Shown here one piece after another: positions 4,670-20,000 of a stretch of 20,000 bases of DNA. The notes beneath the pieces were generated by a model. That model was not told where the DNA came from and made no database searches. It saw only the letters and a list, made by a program, of their open reading frames with translations. The stretch's first letter is position 1; each line of letters begins with the position of its first letter. The position numbers and the translations under genes were made by a program. This DNA comes from an uncultured virus (IMG/VR IMGVR_UViG_3300046692_000582) (Duplodnaviria; Heunggongvirae; Uroviricota; Caudoviricetes): the IMG/VR virus record IMGVR_UViG_3300046692_000582; one strand, 5' to 3'.

Positions 4670-5131
4670 TCAGCCTTTGTCCAATGTCATGTTGAAAACA
4701 ACGCACTCTTCGGTGCTGTCTGTGGATTTGGCCATCATGGCGAGTGCTTTTTTGCGCGTGTTGCCAGGGATAACTCCGGCTCGTAGGAGTTCCAAGACCG
4801 AGGGAGCCTGGAGCTGATTGACAGCGCAGTGCACCAACCTTCTAGCGTCGATGTCTTGCAGGTGCATGCCCGTGCACCAGACGTCCAGCTGACTACCGCG
4901 ACTGATCTTTACGGGCTGGTCGATCAGGCCTTGAGCTTTACGCTTTGTCTCGCTGGGTTCATATGCAGTCATGATGGCATTGGCCAGCGCGCCCCGAACT
5001 TCGATGGAGCCTTGCGTGCCGTAGGTGGTGAAATGCTCATCGCCCACAATCACCAGTGCATTGTCGATCTCGCGCTGATCCTCTGGAGTCAATTGGAATG
5101 GCTTTTCGGCATTCAATGGAGTGGTTGTCAT
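4670..5131 (-). CDS. hypothetical protein (153 aa), paralog of 5277-5921
   Basis: Shares IEVxGxLANAIMTA and GLIDQPV with the neighbouring gene; has its own promoter. Confidence 0.85.
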   Translation of the reverse strand: MTTTPLNAEKPFQLTPEDQREIDNALVIVGDEHFTTYGTQGSIEVRGALANAIMTAYEPSETKRKAQGLIDQPVKISRGSQLDVWCTGMHLQDIDARRLVHCAVNQLQAPSVLELLRAGVIPGNTRKKALAMMAKSTDSTEECVVFNMTLDKG

Positions 5132-5183
5132 CAGTTCAAATCGCCCAGTGATGATGTGCAGATTGCGACAGATTTCAGCAATC

Positions 5184-5223
5184 TTGATGGGATAATTTTA
5201 CTTGGATTTCAGCAGCACGTCAA
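5184..5223 (-). promoter_or_regulatory. sigma70 promoter, CATCAA class
   Basis: TTGACG (5223-5218), 17 bp, TAAAAT (5200-5195), 5 bp, CATCAAG. Confidence 0.82.
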
Positions 5224-5255
5224 CCACAATGTCATTGTTATTGACATTGTGGTTG
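5221..5255. repeat. perfect 14-bp inverted repeat with 7-bp spacer
   Basis: CAACCACAATGTCA-TTGTTAT-TGACATTGTGGTTG. Confidence 0.9.
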
Positions 5256-5276
5256 TTGATGAAGCGAATGTAATTG

Positions 5277-5921
5277 TTAGATCTTGTTGATCTCAACATT
5301 CACCCGGTCGATCAGATCGGCGTGGCCTTCTTCGCTGGCGATGAACAGGGCTTGCCGCAGAAGCTTGTGCGAAACGACGCCAAGCTTCAGGGCCTCGGCG
5401 ACTCTCATCGCAATCCACTGATAGTCCACCACAGCGGAGGTGATTACGTGAATCTCCTCCAGGACTTTGCGGGTTTCTTCGTCGATGGCGCTGCTGGGGC
5501 TAAAGGTAACAACCGTTTCGAATCCGGCAGGAACTTGCAGGGGAACGAACAGTGGCAAGTTCGGCTTTTCCTGAGGGTCGGCCACCAGCGGGCGGCTCAG
5601 CAGTTCGCGCACAGCACGGTGCACCAAGCCCCGGACGCCCTTGCCTTCCACGTAAAAGCCGTTGCACCAGATTTCCAGATGGCCGCTACGGCTGACCCGC
5701 ACAGGCTGGTCAATCAAGCCACGGAACTTGCGCACTTCCTCGTCGGGAAAGTGTGCTGTCATGATGGCGTTAGCCAGCACGCCGTGAACTTCGATGTGAC
5801 CCATTTGACCGTCGTTACTGAAGTCCTCGGCCCCAACGATGGACAGCGCCGTGCCGATCTCGATTTGATCTTCAGCGCTGAGGCGCAGTGGTTTTTGGGC
5901 AGTTTCTGAGGTGCTGGTCAT
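5277..5921 (-). CDS. hypothetical protein (214 aa), paralog of 4670-5131
   Basis: Shared ~110-aa N-terminal domain; has its own promoter. Confidence 0.85.
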   Translation of the reverse strand: MTSTSETAQKPLRLSAEDQIEIGTALSIVGAEDFSNDGQMGHIEVHGVLANAIMTAHFPDEEVRKFRGLIDQPVRVSRSGHLEIWCNGFYVEGKGVRGLVHRAVRELLSRPLVADPQEKPNLPLFVPLQVPAGFETVVTFSPSSAIDEETRKVLEEIHVITSAVVDYQWIAMRVAEALKLGVVSHKLLRQALFIASEEGHADLIDRVNVEINKI

Positions 5922-12714: not shown

Positions 12715-12830
12715 TTGTAAGCGACGCAGTTTTTTCGCCCGCCATGCTGATTGCCATGCGGTTCGCCAGTCGGTTTTTAATTAATGCATTGAGACATCAT
12801 CATTTCCGACAAAGGATATATTGCAGAAAT

Positions 12831-12858
12831 ATAATATCAGCAAATAAAACAATGTCAA
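12831..12858 (-). promoter_or_regulatory. sigma70 promoter for the leftward gene run
   Basis: TTGACA (12858-12853), 16 bp, TATTAT (12836-12831). Confidence 0.7.
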
Positions 12859-12899
12859 TTCAATCGACTAAGATGATTACTTCATTTTTGACAATGCAG

Positions 12900-12937
12900 T
12901 TGACATCATCCCGCTTCCCGCTATAATAAGGCATCAA
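12900..12937 (+). promoter_or_regulatory. consensus sigma70 promoter, CATCAA class
   Basis: TTGACA (12900-12905), 16 bp, TATAAT (12922-12927), 4 bp, CATCAA. Confidence 0.82.
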
Positions 12938-13005
12938 CAAAGCATTCGTCGATCTATTTTAGATTAGATTTCGCTCGATAAGTTACCTTTCTAGTGGTGA
13001 GCACT

Positions 13006-13787: not shown

Positions 13788-15215
13788 TCACTGATCAAAT
13801 TCGGTCACCCTGAATACTTCACTGATTTGTGGCAGCGCGGATGTGTCATAGGTCGGCACCAGATACCAAAACCAGTTTCTGAAATTAATGCTGTAGTTCT
13901 CATGGACGTTACTGAACTCGCCATCCGTCAGCACAAACACGCCATCAAATTTAATCTCCTTTGACAGCTCCATGGCGTGTTCGTAGACGTTTTCAATCCA
14001 TGTCCCGCCACTGAAGAACTTCGGTTCCTTGAGGTCAATTGCCTCAACTGTCCCGGCAAAAATGTAGGTGTACAGTTCGTACTTGTCTTCGGGCAAGTTT
14101 TTGATCAACGACAGCATGCGCTTGATGTAATCAAAGCAGGATCCAGATGTATCCATGTAGACCAGAATCTTCAGCTTTTCCTGTTCTGGTTTGATTGGCA
14201 CGCGCAAGGACCCAGGCAGCGTGACGCCGGGATTGATTCGTTTCATTACGTCATACAGGCGATTGTTTGGACGACTCCATGAGGCTTTTGATTCGCGCTC
14301 TTTTGAGCGCTTGTTGACTGTTCTGAGGGTGATTGCGAACACGTCATCAAGGCTGCGAGTGACTTCGACCTTGACCGTGAACTGCCCAAAATTCTCATTG
14401 CTGTACGATCCGGACTTCCCCTTGGATGGATGGGTGTTGTTGAGCAGGTCTTCATCAGTGATGTCGTCACCCAGGAACTGATTGATCAGCGCCTGTTCCT
14501 GCATCACCGATTCCCATGAACGAGACTGGTGCTCACTGTGCTGAGCTTGTGCCTGCGCCGGACCTTCAGTCCCGGTGGCAACTGAACGGTAACCATGGGT
14601 CTCCAGCACCTTCTCAGCGCTGCACTCAACGTCCATTGCGTGCTGATGTTTGAGCCAGACTCGGGCATAGAACTCAAACGTTTCATTCAAAGGCAATTGC
14701 TCGACTGCCAGCACCTCTTTAGGAAATACGGTGTCGACAAAGCACAGTCCGCCCTCAAACTGCATCAGCGCCCGGTCAAAACCGTAAGCTGGTGATACCA
14801 GTCCTTCATTGATTTCAATGTCCTGAATGACGTTCAACAGATCGTTGGTCAACAGCTGGTACTGACCACCCTCTTGTTTGATTTCTTCGATCAATACTTG
14901 CTCGCGCTGACAGTGCTTACGCAGGACGTGCATGATTTCGTGCGCCAGGATAAAGCACTGTTTCATGAATCCGATAGAAGCCCAAAACGTTGAGTTGATC
15001 AAAAATCGAAAGCAGCGCCCTTCCCTATCAAAGATGACGGCAGCCCGCTCCACCGAGGGGTCGAATTGAGGGTGCGCCAGCTCATTCATGAAGCTGTATA
15101 GCAGCATGGCGTGCGTTCGGAGAAACGCGGCATGGGCCGGAGTCAGCACCTCGTCACAGCGCGACACGATGCTGTGGCGAAAGGCCGAGTTATCCTGAGT
15201 AACCCGTTGGCTCAT
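13788..15215 (-). CDS. DUF2201-type putative metallopeptidase / VWA domain protein (475 aa)
   Basis: ILAHEIMHV (HExxH) and DIEINE in the N-terminal half; MIDAS YMDTSGS, GGT and VLTDG in the C-terminal half. ATG 15215 is 4 bp after the ATPase stop. Confidence 0.88.
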   Translation of the reverse strand: MSQRVTQDNSAFRHSIVSRCDEVLTPAHAAFLRTHAMLLYSFMNELAHPQFDPSVERAAVIFDREGRCFRFLINSTFWASIGFMKQCFILAHEIMHVLRKHCQREQVLIEEIKQEGGQYQLLTNDLLNVIQDIEINEGLVSPAYGFDRALMQFEGGLCFVDTVFPKEVLAVEQLPLNETFEFYARVWLKHQHAMDVECSAEKVLETHGYRSVATGTEGPAQAQAQHSEHQSRSWESVMQEQALINQFLGDDITDEDLLNNTHPSKGKSGSYSNENFGQFTVKVEVTRSLDDVFAITLRTVNKRSKERESKASWSRPNNRLYDVMKRINPGVTLPGSLRVPIKPEQEKLKILVYMDTSGSCFDYIKRMLSLIKNLPEDKYELYTYIFAGTVEAIDLKEPKFFSGGTWIENVYEHAMELSKEIKFDGVFVLTDGEFSNVHENYSINFRNWFWYLVPTYDTSALPQISEVFRVTEFDQ

Positions 15216-15219
15216 TGGG

Positions 15220-16893
15220 TTACACCCCTGCCATCTTGTCAAAGAACGCATCCATGGTTTTGATTGGGTGCGGGTTTTTGCTGGTGCAGTAATTGGTGAA
15301 GTCGCCAATCGACTCGATCAGGTTTTCGCCAAATTGTGCGTACAGTACTGGCGCCACGTTATTTGAGCGCAGCAGTTTGGTGGCAGCGACATGAAATGCC
15401 TTGAACGTGCGGTTTCCGAAGTAACCAGCAGAGCCTCCACCCCTCAGTGTATGTTCCAGTTCCAGTGCCTTGAGCGCGCCGCCAATGCCCACCATGTCAC
15501 CCAGGAAGCGCATGGCGCCCTCATCTTCAATGCGCTTGCTCACAAAGACCTGAAAGTCATAAGTGGCGAAGTTGGACACCGCTCTCAAGATTTTCGACAG
15601 CTGCGTTTCGTCCTGTTTGGAGTGACGGGCATAGCTCATGACGAACAGCAATTTAGAATGGATGTCAGGCAGGTCGTCGGTCAGGATTTTCCAGGCGCAC
15701 ATCGCAGCTAGCAGCCGATCAGAACGCCCCAATTCCAGCGTTGGCGTCATTGGGTGGCAAACGGTGGCCAGGGTGTAGATTTGGCTGAATGCTTCAAAAA
15801 CTGGCTCCATGAAGGGGATGGAGGAACCCTTGCTGGTGCCGATTATTGAGGCCTTCGAGGGGCCGTTGTTGATTTTCGCCAACAATTCAGTGAGTTTGAA
15901 ATCGCTATTGAGCACAGGCGCCAGCGGCGTATTTTCGCTGTTGAACAGGCCTGCCGTGACGATCAGGTCGGAGAGCCCTGCCGTCTCCGGGGCGCGCTGA
16001 ATCAGCTCGTCCACAACGGCTTTGGACAAGTTAGGCAGCACTTTTTGCTTGAACACTTGTTGATGTTTTTTGAAAAACTCAGCGTGCTCAATAACCCGCT
16101 GCGCCGAAAAATACTCGGGAATTTCTTCTGTCTTCAGGGCATCAATGATCGACAGGATCGAATCCTTGTTCTGCTTTTCCTTGACGCTCTTAAGTAGGCT
16201 GGTGGCATTAATCGCATCCGGCAGGTAATGCTTGAGGTTATCGCCTTCCAGAATGCATTGCACCGCGTCGTCCAGGCGTCTTGGCGAGCACAGCAGTTGG
16301 TGCTCGTAATCCAGATTTCGCCACCACTTCACGGCGACATCGCCCACGCTTTTGCCAAACTTCTGGTGGAAAAACTCGGGCACCACATCGTAGGGGAAAT
16401 GAATTTGTGCTTGAAAGCGGTCTTCTTGCGCAAGATCAAGCACGTCCACGTCGTACTCGCCACCGTGTGAGGGGTTAATGGCGGTCCAGACCACTTCTAG
16501 GTTCTTGAATTTGCGCCCATTGACGCTTTTGCGCTGCAACAGCTCCATGAAGCCGTTTCGGGCCTCTTTGCTGGCTCGATTGAATTCGTCCACGTAAATG
16601 GCGCGAATGTCTGCACTCAACTGCTCAGGCGGCACCATGCGAGTAACTTCCTCGCCCCGGTCGTTTTTAACAAACAGAGGAATTCCCAGCAGGGTGATCC
16701 AGGGGTCCATGGTCGCGCCGTTAAAGTAGACCCAGTCTTTGCCTTCCTCACCATAGACCTCATCAAAAACATCAATGATCACGCCGGTTTTACCGACGCC
16801 ATGACGCCCTGTAATCATGAGGTTTTTACGTCTGCGAGCGATGAGCTTGAGTTCATCGTGACCCGCAAACATGGATGGTGCAGATTTAGACAT
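15220..16893 (-). CDS. MoxR-like AAA+ ATPase with long C-terminal extension (557 aa)
   Basis: Walker A GRHGVGKT, Walker B IYVDEFNR, sensor-1 AINP, Arg finger DLAQEDRF; AGGAGG RBS at ATG 16893. Confidence 0.9.
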   Translation of the reverse strand: MSKSAPSMFAGHDELKLIARRRKNLMITGRHGVGKTGVIIDVFDEVYGEEGKDWVYFNGATMDPWITLLGIPLFVKNDRGEEVTRMVPPEQLSADIRAIYVDEFNRASKEARNGFMELLQRKSVNGRKFKNLEVVWTAINPSHGGEYDVDVLDLAQEDRFQAQIHFPYDVVPEFFHQKFGKSVGDVAVKWWRNLDYEHQLLCSPRRLDDAVQCILEGDNLKHYLPDAINATSLLKSVKEKQNKDSILSIIDALKTEEIPEYFSAQRVIEHAEFFKKHQQVFKQKVLPNLSKAVVDELIQRAPETAGLSDLIVTAGLFNSENTPLAPVLNSDFKLTELLAKINNGPSKASIIGTSKGSSIPFMEPVFEAFSQIYTLATVCHPMTPTLELGRSDRLLAAMCAWKILTDDLPDIHSKLLFVMSYARHSKQDETQLSKILRAVSNFATYDFQVFVSKRIEDEGAMRFLGDMVGIGGALKALELEHTLRGGGSAGYFGNRTFKAFHVAATKLLRSNNVAPVLYAQFGENLIESIGDFTNYCTSKNPHPIKTMDAFFDKMAGV

Positions 16894-16915
16894 ATGTCCT
16901 CCTAGTATTGGCATT

Positions 16916-16944
16916 AATATGTCAAAAACACAAAATAATGTCAA
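16916..16944 (-). promoter_or_regulatory. probable sigma70 promoter of the ATPase-VWA operon
   Basis: TTGACA (16944-16939), 17 bp, CATATT (16921-16916). Confidence 0.55.
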
Positions 16945-17627: not shown

Positions 17628-18038
17628 TCATCTAGCAGCTTCAAGATCGAAGGGCTTCAGGCTCATAACCTGCACAAATCCGAACATCATGCCCCAGATG
17701 AAAAATAGGGTTGCTGAGAGCAGTAGGTTTGAGTAGCTGTTAGCCAAATACCCGAAATACAACGCCGTCCCAATTGGCAGCGACAGAAAGTAGCCCCAGT
17801 ATGACGCCTTCCGCATCCGTGGAAATGGCCGCACTTGCCCAACCATGTTGGCCAGGATCACCAAGACGGTGAACATCAGCGAAGCCGACGCCCAAATCAC
17901 GACGTGCGGAATGACGCTGTCCACATGCTGACCGATCCACATCACTGCATCTATCACGGGCGGCACTATCAGAAACATCAGTCTGAACAAACCGTAAATG
18001 CCAACCGCGATCAAGATCGCGAACATAAGCCAGTTCAT
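17628..18038 (-). CDS. integral membrane protein, ~4 TM (136 aa)
   Basis: GGAGG RBS, ATGA overlap, hydrophobic segments. Confidence 0.75.
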   Translation of the reverse strand: MNWLMFAILIAVGIYGLFRLMFLIVPPVIDAVMWIGQHVDSVIPHVVIWASASLMFTVLVILANMVGQVRPFPRMRKASYWGYFLSLPIGTALYFGYLANSYSNLLLSATLFFIWGMMFGFVQVMSLKPFDLEAAR

Positions 18039-18502
18039 GCTTTGCCTCCCGCATATCCTTTGTCCACTCTTTCCCGATAATCAATGAACATCGGGGCAAA
18101 CCAGAGCATGATCCACAGAAGGCCGTAGATCATGCCCGACAGCCCATGGCGAGGATAGAGTTGATGTTCCAGCAAGGTCAAAGCGAAGCACGCCGCCGAA
18201 CCGACATAGGAGGCGCAATTTGTAAAGTGATAGAACTTCTGGTACTCGGTGTTTTTGGCGTTCTTGCTGGCGATCAGTAGGAAGGCGCTAATGAAAAATG
18301 CAATTGGCGTAACGAGAGGCACGTTGATCACGTCGCCAATTTTGATTGCCAGCGCCTCAAGGGAGGCAACCAGGAGTGAGTAGCCTTGGTCGCGAACCCA
18401 TAGCAGCAACATCAGCATAGCGAGCAGCGCAATGGCGATCAGCAAGCTTTTGAGTGTAATACTCAGTGGCGTTGGCTTTGGCCCGGATTTAAACCAATTC
18501 AT
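18035..18502 (-). CDS. integral membrane protein, ~4 TM (155 aa)
   Basis: GAGGG RBS, ATG 18502, hydrophobic segments. Confidence 0.75.
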   Translation of the reverse strand: MNWFKSGPKPTPLSITLKSLLIAIALLAMLMLLLWVRDQGYSLLVASLEALAIKIGDVINVPLVTPIAFFISAFLLIASKNAKNTEYQKFYHFTNCASYVGSAACFALTLLEHQLYPRHGLSGMIYGLLWIMLWFAPMFIDYRERVDKGYAGGKA

Positions 18503-18504
18503 TG

Positions 18505-19263
18505 TCAACCCTCTTGCTTCATGTAATCGCTGTATTTGATGGAAGTCTTGATGATAACGGCTTGAAGGAAGCCATCTTCACTTTCCAGGCGAACGACGTC
18601 AGTAACGAGCCCCTTGAACACGGATTCTTGCAAGTCCTCAACAAGACGCCATGCCTCGCAGTGGGAGTTGCTACTCACGGTGTCGGCAATGTCGATTACC
18701 AGATTCACTGTGTCAGTGGCTGTAACGCCCACGGCAGGTGCTTGGTAAATCACACTCCGGCCATTGGGTCGGTCAATGGCAATCGGCTTACCCGAATCGG
18801 GAGAGGCGACTACGCCAAACTGCATGCGTGTAGCCCTGTAGAGGAACATGTTCAGTCTGCGTTTGTTCCAGACCCAGTAGTCAACATGAAAGATCTCTTT
18901 ATGAACCCTGGAACAAAAAATTGCATCCAGATTGAAATCGCCGCTGACGGGCAACTCAAACAACTCATCACTCTGAGCGATCAGTTTGTATTGAGTCCCG
19001 GCTGTCGCCTGTGCGACCAGATCGTTGATAAATTCGCTGCGAAAACGATCATCACGCGGGCGGCTTTCTGGTGTTGAGAGCACCGGATCGGTGATCTGTG
19101 CGCCGAATGCCTTGAAGCAGGTGTAGTGCTGCAATTCGACATGAGCCAGGGCATCTTCAAGCGCCTGAGCCATCACGATGTATTCGTGCGTCACCAACAT
19201 GTCAGGTCGACCATGAGGCATGGGTCGTGCGGGCTGGGCGATGATAATTTTAAAGGGGCTCAT
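18505..19263 (-). CDS. hypothetical protein (252 aa)
   Basis: Long ORF with AAGG RBS and its own promoter. Confidence 0.8.
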   Translation of the reverse strand: MSPFKIIIAQPARPMPHGRPDMLVTHEYIVMAQALEDALAHVELQHYTCFKAFGAQITDPVLSTPESRPRDDRFRSEFINDLVAQATAGTQYKLIAQSDELFELPVSGDFNLDAIFCSRVHKEIFHVDYWVWNKRRLNMFLYRATRMQFGVVASPDSGKPIAIDRPNGRSVIYQAPAVGVTATDTVNLVIDIADTVSSNSHCEAWRLVEDLQESVFKGLVTDVVRLESEDGFLQAVIIKTSIKYSDYMKQEG

Positions 19264-19285
19264 AACCGACCTTGGTTGCCGTTGT

Positions 19286-19325
19286 TTGATGAGATGATCA
19301 TAGTAAGCAGCATATTAAATGTCAA
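19286..19325 (-). promoter_or_regulatory. sigma70 promoter, CATCAA class
   Basis: TTGACA (19325-19320), 17 bp, TATGAT (19302-19297), 5 bp, CATCAA. Confidence 0.8.
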
Positions 19326-19347
19326 TGACAAAAACCATTTATTGGAT

Positions 19348-19377
19348 TTGACAAAATCGTCTAGATGCATATATTAT
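19348..19377 (+). promoter_or_regulatory. sigma70 promoter of the candidate ncRNA
   Basis: TTGACA (19348-19353), 18 bp, TATTAT (19372-19377); predicted start site near G19384. Confidence 0.75.
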
Positions 19378-19383
19378 GTGAAT

Positions 19384-19714
19384 GTCAGTGGCGGTGGCTG
19401 CTGAGATCCATCGCATCAAGTGATGCGGCGCAGACAGCATGCGAAAGCATACGGCGCATGTGCGGGAATGCTGCTACCCGTGCTTCTCCTGGGAAAATGC
19501 CTCTGGCCGGGAGTGACTGAAGAGGTTGCCTTATTCCTGAGAGATCGGGCGCGGCTAACGCCGTCAAGGCGCGTGGGAGTATCGGCTCCTCGATGTGGAT
19601 ATGCGGTATTCCACACTGTAAAACACACCGCCGAGACTGAGCGCAGGCCAGGGATGCCTGTAGTGCGTTCTTTCTAGTCCTAAAAGCCCGACTTCTTTGA
19701 GGTCGGGCTTTTTT
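19384..19714 (+). ncRNA. candidate large structured noncoding RNA of unrecognised family
   Basis: Bounded by a promoter and a terminator; 12-bp long-range closing helix; many short hairpins with GAAA, GAGA and UAAC loops; no credible ORF. Confidence 0.72.
19682..19714. terminator. bidirectional intrinsic terminator
   Basis: AAAAGCCCGACTTC-TTT-GAGGTCGGGCTTTTTT; the stronger U-tract is on the plus strand. Confidence 0.9.
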
Positions 19715-19727
19715 CATTTGGAGCGCG

Positions 19728-20000
19728 CTACTCGACTGACAGCTCTTCAATTACCGCACGGTACAGTCGTCGTTGTTCAGTGGTCATTTTGTCAAAGCCG
19801 CAATCCCGGTAGCCGGAATGAATCCAGGCGTGGTGTACGAGGTCTTTAAGACCTGCGGTCTCCGCTTCGTAGCGCTCATCATTGGCCAGGGTATTGGCTG
19901 CGTTCGCCACGGTGCGCATGCTAGCTCTCAGTTCATCATTCAGGCAGGTTTGCGTGTCAGCGGCTTGCTGCACCATGTCTGCGGCTTTTTGAAGCGTCAT
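19728..20000 (-). CDS. hypothetical protein (at least 90 aa; may extend beyond the window)
   Basis: ORF ends just before the terminator; ATG falls exactly at the window edge. Confidence 0.7.

Follow-up and report, generated by a model that had tools for sequence, protein, structure and literature searches.

Towards the end of the window, by which we mean the whole 20,000-nt stretch of DNA analysed here, 464 bases separate two minus-strand genes (18505-19263 and 19728-20000), and this gap harbors a candidate RNA gene on the plus strand (Table 1). The gap displays two back-to-back promoter-like sites, one on the minus strand (TTGACA at 19325), which serves the gene of a 252-aa protein, and one on the plus strand (19348-19377), which comes close to the sigma-70 consensus with either of two -10 hexamers, TATATT or TATTAT, and whose position predicts an RNA start near 19382-19385. 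Four promoter-like sites are found in 19000-20000, as against 0.9 expected. The other end of the gap features an intrinsic terminator that ranks first among the 35 terminator-like sites of the whole window and that also faces the convergent minus-strand gene. A reading of the letters alone (hereafter the sequence-only reading) had proposed that a non-coding RNA is transcribed on its own from the plus strand, from a promoter built from TTGACA and TATTAT at a spacer of 18 to a strong terminator ending at 19714; both signals are borne out. Downstream, the minus-strand ORF 19728-20000 scores 0.29 bits per codon and the plus-strand ORF overlapping it 0.10, under a codon model trained on the genes of the window, 25 of the 26 training genes scoring 0.05 to 0.36 when left out in turn. 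As the minus-strand ORF is gene-like and the plus-strand one scores low, we take the next gene to converge on the RNA, which is thus no ordinary leader. At 12800-12960, the window further shows a cluster of strong, divergent promoter-like sites, among them its only 12 of 12 consensus match (TTGACA, spacer 16, TATAAT at 12900, plus strand); the cluster is located upstream of a 103-aa plus-strand ORF with a codon score near zero (0.02).

Table 1. Features of the candidate RNA gene, in order of position in the window
Feature	Coordinates	Strand	Support and remarks
-35 hexamer TTGACA	19348..19353	+	11 of 12 consensus matches with either choice of -10
-10 region, TATATT (spacer 16) or TATTAT (spacer 18)	19370..19377	+	close to the sigma-70 consensus
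P1 5' strand (P1a 19385-19389, P1b 19390-19396)	19385..19396	+	standard pairs; probability 0.99-1.00 for P1b, 0.00 for P1a
P2, long hairpin	19397..19438	+	outer helices 0.98-0.99; tip in alternative registers (0.33-0.35)
P3, hairpin with GAAA loop	19439..19450	+	probability 0.84-0.99; A19439>G in both relatives turns A-U into G-U
81-nt block, no listed difference in the peat relative	19440..19520	+	0 of 10 listed substitutions fall here
P4, local hairpin or 5' strand of a long-range helix with 19597-19619	19460..19483	+	both drawings made of standard pairs
P5, hairpin	19486..19513	+	standard pairs; retained in the two-sequence consensus fold
P6, hairpin with GAGA loop	19536..19549	+	G19547>A turns U-G into U-A; retained in the consensus fold
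P7, hairpin with UAAC loop	19551..19564	+	retained in the consensus fold
P8, hairpin	19575..19590	+	U19590>C turns G-U into G-C; U19580>G opens the loop-closing pair only
P9, local hairpin or 3' strand of the long-range helix	19594..19615	+	both drawings made of standard pairs
P1 3' strand, with 3-nt bulge 19633-19635	19626..19640	+	standard pairs
Hairpin 3' of the closed domain	19644..19660	+	standard pairs; MFE fold draws a larger version, 19639-19670
Linker before the terminator, pyrimidine-rich, probably single-stranded	19661..19681	+	partly unpaired in MFE and centroid folds; sequence reading
Intrinsic terminator, 14-pair stem 19682-19712 and six U	19682..19714	+	pair probabilities 0.70-1.00

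The divergent operon next to the RNA codes for the 252-aa protein, which is of no known family, and two small membrane-type proteins. The 252-aa protein falls into no Pfam, PHROG, NCBIfam or PADLOC family, and the Atlas gave nothing usable for it; it has one close relative (92%) and four full-length distant ones (23-30% identity; E 6e-20 to 9e-4), whose alignment proved too divergent to guide a locus search. Distant relatives are found on contigs of 1.06 Mb and 938 kb, of which the latter comes from a Pseudomonas syringae pv. actinidiae record. Single-protein scans with the neighboring proteins uncovered no locus, and tblastn of the protein P0009 against plasmids gave no match. Contigs from two of the public runs described below (X2 and X3) join 18048 directly to 18513 and are thus devoid of almost exactly the gene of a 157-aa membrane protein (18035-18508).

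Elsewhere, the window contains a MoxR-like ATPase (574 aa) paired with a DUF2201-type metallopeptidase (506 aa; the gene pair spans 13788-16944), a NUDIX hydrolase, a winged-helix regulator and a PrimPol (AEP-TOTE) protein that is cut by the window end (1-870) and has 115 plasmid relatives annotated as DEAD/DEAH helicase fusions. A survey of defense-system context matched only the distant PrimPol and a NUDIX domain, and the idea of such a context was dropped. A 595-kb uncultured phage and Burkholderia phage BCSR5 contain the ATPase-DUF2201 pair as well, at 23-43% identity; the only phage relatives of the ATPase (31-43% identity) come from the 595-kb phage and the jumbo phages BCSR5 and phiRSL1 (Ralstonia), synteny with these phages extends to the ATPase-DUF2201 pair only, and neither the ATPase nor P0009 has a match in any plasmid of the collection. 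By exact-sequence look-up, five proteins of the window are found on one 876,603-nt contig, and each of the five is the only or nearly the only member of its 90% cluster. To judge from the contig sizes, the carrier is a very large uncultivated soil replicon, be it a huge phage, a megaplasmid or a chromosome, and it may be a near-megabase element. The earlier suggestion of a mobile element is plausible, with both jumbo-phage-like and plasmid-like genes being present. The contig sizes recall the ~1-Mb Pseudomonas megaplasmids (pMPPla107; 10.1101/385575), though we claim no relation. In the gap 5131-5277 between two minus-strand genes of the window, we also observed a perfect 14-bp inverted repeat with a 7-nt spacer (5221-5255), which overlaps promoter-like sites and is operator-like in look.

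We scanned the whole window with the covariance models of Rfam 15, and none of the 4227 families reaches its gathering score. At E-values up to 10, there are 13 weak matches in 19000-20000, mostly restricted to the terminator, and no match at all to RNase P, 6S or SRP RNA or to the ribozyme, group I and group II models. The permuted-tmRNA model attains 14.6 bits as against the 47 needed, with a match that lies over the promoter, and ARAGORN predicts no tRNA or tmRNA gene in the window. These scans agree with the sequence-only reading, which had seen no tRNA, tmRNA, RNase P, SRP or 6S signature. The mmgR/suhB sRNA model aligns to 19649-19723 (19.1 bits; gathering score 41; E 0.31), and the sole match within 19380-19665 is to the alphaproteobacterial speF leader (RF00518; 14.6 bits; gathering score 37), whose best core alignment shares a short ACUGAAGA stretch after a hairpin; however, most of that model is unaligned and there is no speF gene here. 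We regard both similarities as noise.

Nucleotide searches were likewise fruitless. Neither blastn, run with 19300-19730 on plasmids, phages and E. coli genomes, nor megablast, run with the whole window on plasmids and phages, returned a match, and exact or spaced patterns of the RNA recovered no relative from viral and genome contigs with the seeds used. A single pattern match in a viral contig proved to lie in a coding region unrelated by blastn, and a 19-mer found at five loci in metagenome contigs was dismissed as chance, as the similarity ended after 19-20 nt. A covariance model of the closed domain found no match in two jumbo-phage records and one viral contig, an empty answer that is uninformative. 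The stretch is present in only three public runs, and with no relative in the viral, genome and metagenome collections for the seeds used, the RNA family seems rare. Literature searches recovered no description of this RNA; it may or may not be among the 10,006 candidate structured RNAs of the large IMG/VR survey by Fremin et al. 2023 (PMC10690425). From these searches, we infer that the RNA belongs to no described family.

All 14 helices drawn in the sequence-only reading consist of standard pairs only, and of the 65 pairs in the core, 7 are G-U and would turn into A-C mismatches on the opposite strand, in keeping with its argument that such pairs favor the plus strand. P1, with 12 pairs and a 3-nt bulge, closes a domain of ~255 nt. 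The proposal that the first transcribed bases pair with 19626-19640 stands for P1b, whereas P1a finds no place in the thermodynamic ensemble. More generally, that ensemble backs only P1b, P2a/b, P3 and the terminator (probability 0.84 or more), with a probability of about 0 for P4-P10 as the drawn local hairpins, and the local-hairpin model (-116.9 kcal/mol) is 28 kcal/mol costlier than the MFE fold (-145.3 kcal/mol).

The folding energy of the plus strand is itself unusual (z -4.39), with none of 100 dinucleotide shuffles being as good; the minus strand of the same segment has a z of -3.10. When 358 other 331-nt segments (179 positions, both strands) were compared by regression on GC content, the RNA showed the largest excess of any 331-nt segment, with a GC-adjusted residual of -30.2 kcal/mol (3.4 sd) as against -26.4 kcal/mol at most among the others. 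Non-overlapping perfect local hairpins account for 61 bp, as against 43.7 +/- 7.3 in shuffles, at least 61 being reached in 4 of 500. The second-best segment of the energy scan is the plus strand of 5100-5400, with a folding z of -4.78.

The three runs comprise two rhizosphere metagenomes (X1 and X2) and a peat metatranscriptome (X3). X1 may be the source of the window. The relative found in X2 shows 50 differences from the window across the 732 nt of 19106-19837. In X3, a 231-nt contig with a depth of 233.4 spans 19401-19622 plus eight further letters and thus covers the RNA core only, whereas contigs over the adjacent gene have depths of 5.1 (18513-19055) and 4.8 (19061-19257). This 46- to 49-fold excess in an RNA library fits a stable, abundant RNA, since carry-over of DNA would equalize the depths; contig depth is, nevertheless, a poor measure of expression that gives neither strand nor ends and may sum several organisms sharing the RNA, and we accordingly take the contrast as good but not conclusive evidence of expression. 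The high-depth contig excludes the 5' strand of P1 and everything beyond about 19630. The mature species may, hence, differ from the 330-nt primary transcript, or the contig may simply be broken, and its ends (19401 and about 19630) cannot be taken as RNA ends.

The same contig provides a measure of natural variation. Across the RNA, the peat relative differs from the window by 15 substitutions and one gap (an insertion) in 222 nt (93% identity), as against 85 substitutions and two gaps in 543 nt (84% identity) in the neighboring gene, where third codon positions account for 21 of the 30 listed differences by hand count, as expected for a real protein gene. Among the differences of the RNA contig, ten of the 15 substitutions are listed individually and five are outside the listing, so that the absence of a listed change from the 81-nt block makes its identity in the relative likely, but not certain; the few intact 31-mers that retrieve run X3 agree with the block.

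These differences also bear on the choice between folds. In the local-hairpin model, four of the ten listed substitutions fall in pairs, three of which stay paired by switching between wobble and Watson-Crick pairs, while the remaining six, along with the insertion after 19533, fall in unpaired stretches. In the MFE model, by comparison, eight of the ten fall in pairs and seven of these break pairing. The three wobble switches, in P3, P6 and P8, keep pairing on the plus strand only, and at the flank of P7, C19550>U together with C19565>G turns a C/C mismatch into U-G (read by hand). This variation speaks for P3, P6 and P8 as local hairpins and against the energy-minimum fold, with ten listed differences from one relative contig constituting a compatibility test and not covariation. 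A two-sequence consensus fold, combining the window with the changes of the peat relative, keeps P1, P2, P3, P5, P6, P7 and P8 but swaps P4 and P9 for one long-range helix (19456-19479 with 19597-19619). None of the known differences discriminates between these two drawings, and the center of the RNA (P4 and P9) stays ambiguous.

The RNA has four independent kinds of support, from its transcription signals, its folding, its conservation and its abundance in an RNA library. We consider it likely that the gene is genuine and that its structured product represents a new family. We posit that a host-type sigma-70 promoter would drive a ~330-nt transcript ending at the intrinsic terminator, in which the first transcribed bases would pair with 19626-19640 to close the ~255-nt core domain. 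The RNA would then act in trans, rather than as the leader of a downstream gene, and would do so as a folded particle, most likely by binding or sequestering a protein of the replicon or of the host. The folded-particle mode is suggested by a long block in which stems and loops are frozen alike, which a base-pairing seed alone would not need, and by the abundant species being the structured core and not the linker and terminator. We assign a probability of roughly 0.6 to this reading as a whole, namely, that a real structured RNA, constrained at the nucleotide level and representing a new family, acts in trans and probably works as a folded particle together with a protein. The specific mode of action via a protein partner, with the RNA as scaffold or decoy, is tentative, at clearly less than even odds, and the neighboring proteins match no family that would speak for it. 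More speculatively, the RNA could represent a previously unknown class, a compact and very abundant RNA of near-megabase soil replicons that acts as a new RNP core or a ribozyme; here, the 81-nt block would be near invariant while the neighboring genes drift, but we hold this to be possible though unlikely.

Among the alternatives, the one that survives best is a base-pairing sRNA that binds Hfq and uses the linker 19661-19681 or a C/U-rich loop to pair with the ribosome-binding sites of mRNAs, the structured 5' domain serving only to stabilize it. A hairpin followed by a U-rich single strand and a terminator with a long U tail constitutes an Hfq-binding module, and the 3' part of this RNA, with its hairpin, U/C-rich linker and terminator of a 14-pair stem and six U, has this layout and the faint mmgR/suhB likeness noted above. 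However, that likeness scores far below threshold, the abundant contig in X3 and the frozen block both correspond to the core instead of the 3' module and its linker, and complementarity of the RNA to the rest of the window is at chance level (best 15 nt at 93%, E 1.4 or more). We therefore judge such an sRNA unlikely.

A riboswitch-like orphan aptamer, in which P1 would close the ligand-type domain and the terminator would gate read-through antisense to the convergent gene or into an unrecognized plus-strand ORF that opens at 19773, is quite improbable. The usual layout of riboswitches is indeed a P1-closed multi-helix domain followed by a terminator, as seen here, and the plus-strand ORF 19773-20000 has a weakly positive codon score; but it is the opposing minus-strand ORF that is gene-like, leaving no same-strand gene downstream within the window, no riboswitch family matches, and one candidate anti-terminator stretch (19545-19550, picked by eye) is changed at two positions in the relative. 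We give even less credence to a catalytic RNA, be it a ribozyme, self-cleaving or otherwise, or the RNA component of an enzyme made of RNA and protein, which would account for the closed multi-helix architecture with its GNRA-type loops and for the nucleotide-level conservation of the 81-nt block. The sequence-only reading had named a ribozyme-like RNA as one possibility and had pointed to tetraloops that typify tertiary-folded RNAs, and this part of it gains no support here: no catalytic motif is matched by the ribozyme, RNase P, group I and group II models, and the 7-bp loop-loop complementarity between 19468-19474 and 19603-19609 is equaled by 58% of shuffles.

Three ORFs, of 85 aa (plus), 121 aa (minus) and 51 aa (plus), are open in the RNA region, with respective scores of -0.09, -0.26 and -0.28 bits per codon. 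For the 121-aa ORF, a search of 5.8 billion proteins yielded neither a relative nor a called product. In the peat relative, the 1-nt insertion after 19533 shifts both long ORFs. A weak coding hint, with five of nine codon changes in the minus-strand ORF being synonymous, is contradicted by the insertion and the codon usage and is put down to the wobble switches; the stretch has no credible reading frame, and coding ORFs were dropped as an explanation. That there is no RNA gene here, only a small protein gene (the 121-aa minus-strand or 85-aa plus-strand ORF) or a spacer with chance or DNA-level hairpins, could draw on the open frames, the synonymous changes and the presence in just three public runs, but is rendered very improbable by the frameshift, the negative codon scores, the missing protein relatives, the depth of 233 as against about 5 in an RNA library, a block without listed change next to a gene with 16% of its sites changed, and folding that none of 100 shuffles (4 of 500 for hairpins) and none of 358 other segments equals.

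In very large uncultivated replicons such as huge phages and megaplasmids, the function of most genes is unknown, and RNA genes have hardly been explored. The gene described here is small and self-contained and would hence offer a tractable entry point, as its own promoter could drive its expression in a laboratory strain. As an RNP core or a ribozyme, the RNA would amount to a new class; as an ordinary regulatory RNA, it would modestly extend the long catalogue of orphan candidates.

Several known systems invite comparison. As in retron msr-msd RNAs, the two ends of a structured region of ~250 nt are joined by pairing (P1). A retron, however, has a reverse transcriptase gene downstream on the same strand, whereas the RNA described here ends at a terminator of its own and is followed by a convergent gene, and none of the 27 ORFs tested in the 20,000-nt window displays a reverse transcriptase domain. 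The RNAs of IscB/TnpB systems (HEARO, omega RNA) have no Rfam match here, and the same 27 ORFs include no IscB or TnpB domain. A template/variable repeat pair, or other repeats shared with the rest of the window, was tested for and dropped. With RNAs of the CsrB/RsmZ and staphylococcal RNAIII types, it shares an independent transcription unit, a string of short hairpins and high abundance; it differs in the lack of an Rfam match and in having its ends closed by a long-range helix. Sponges of the CsrB/RsmZ type carry many GGA motifs, which are enriched and presented in loops, and we rejected a Csr-type sponge on the count of six such motifs, as against 6.6 +/- 2.1 in 2000 shuffles, 69% of which have at least six.

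ROOL and GOLLD are roughly 580-800 nt in length and form widespread classes that are usually found in the neighborhood of tRNA genes. The RNA described here is shorter, at ~330 nt, is seen in only three runs, matches no Rfam model and has no tRNA genes in its window. It nonetheless resembles ROOL, GOLLD and the candidates of Fremin et al. (PMC10690425): all are standalone, strongly structured RNAs of unknown function, borne on phage-like or mobile DNA and first found by sequence alone.
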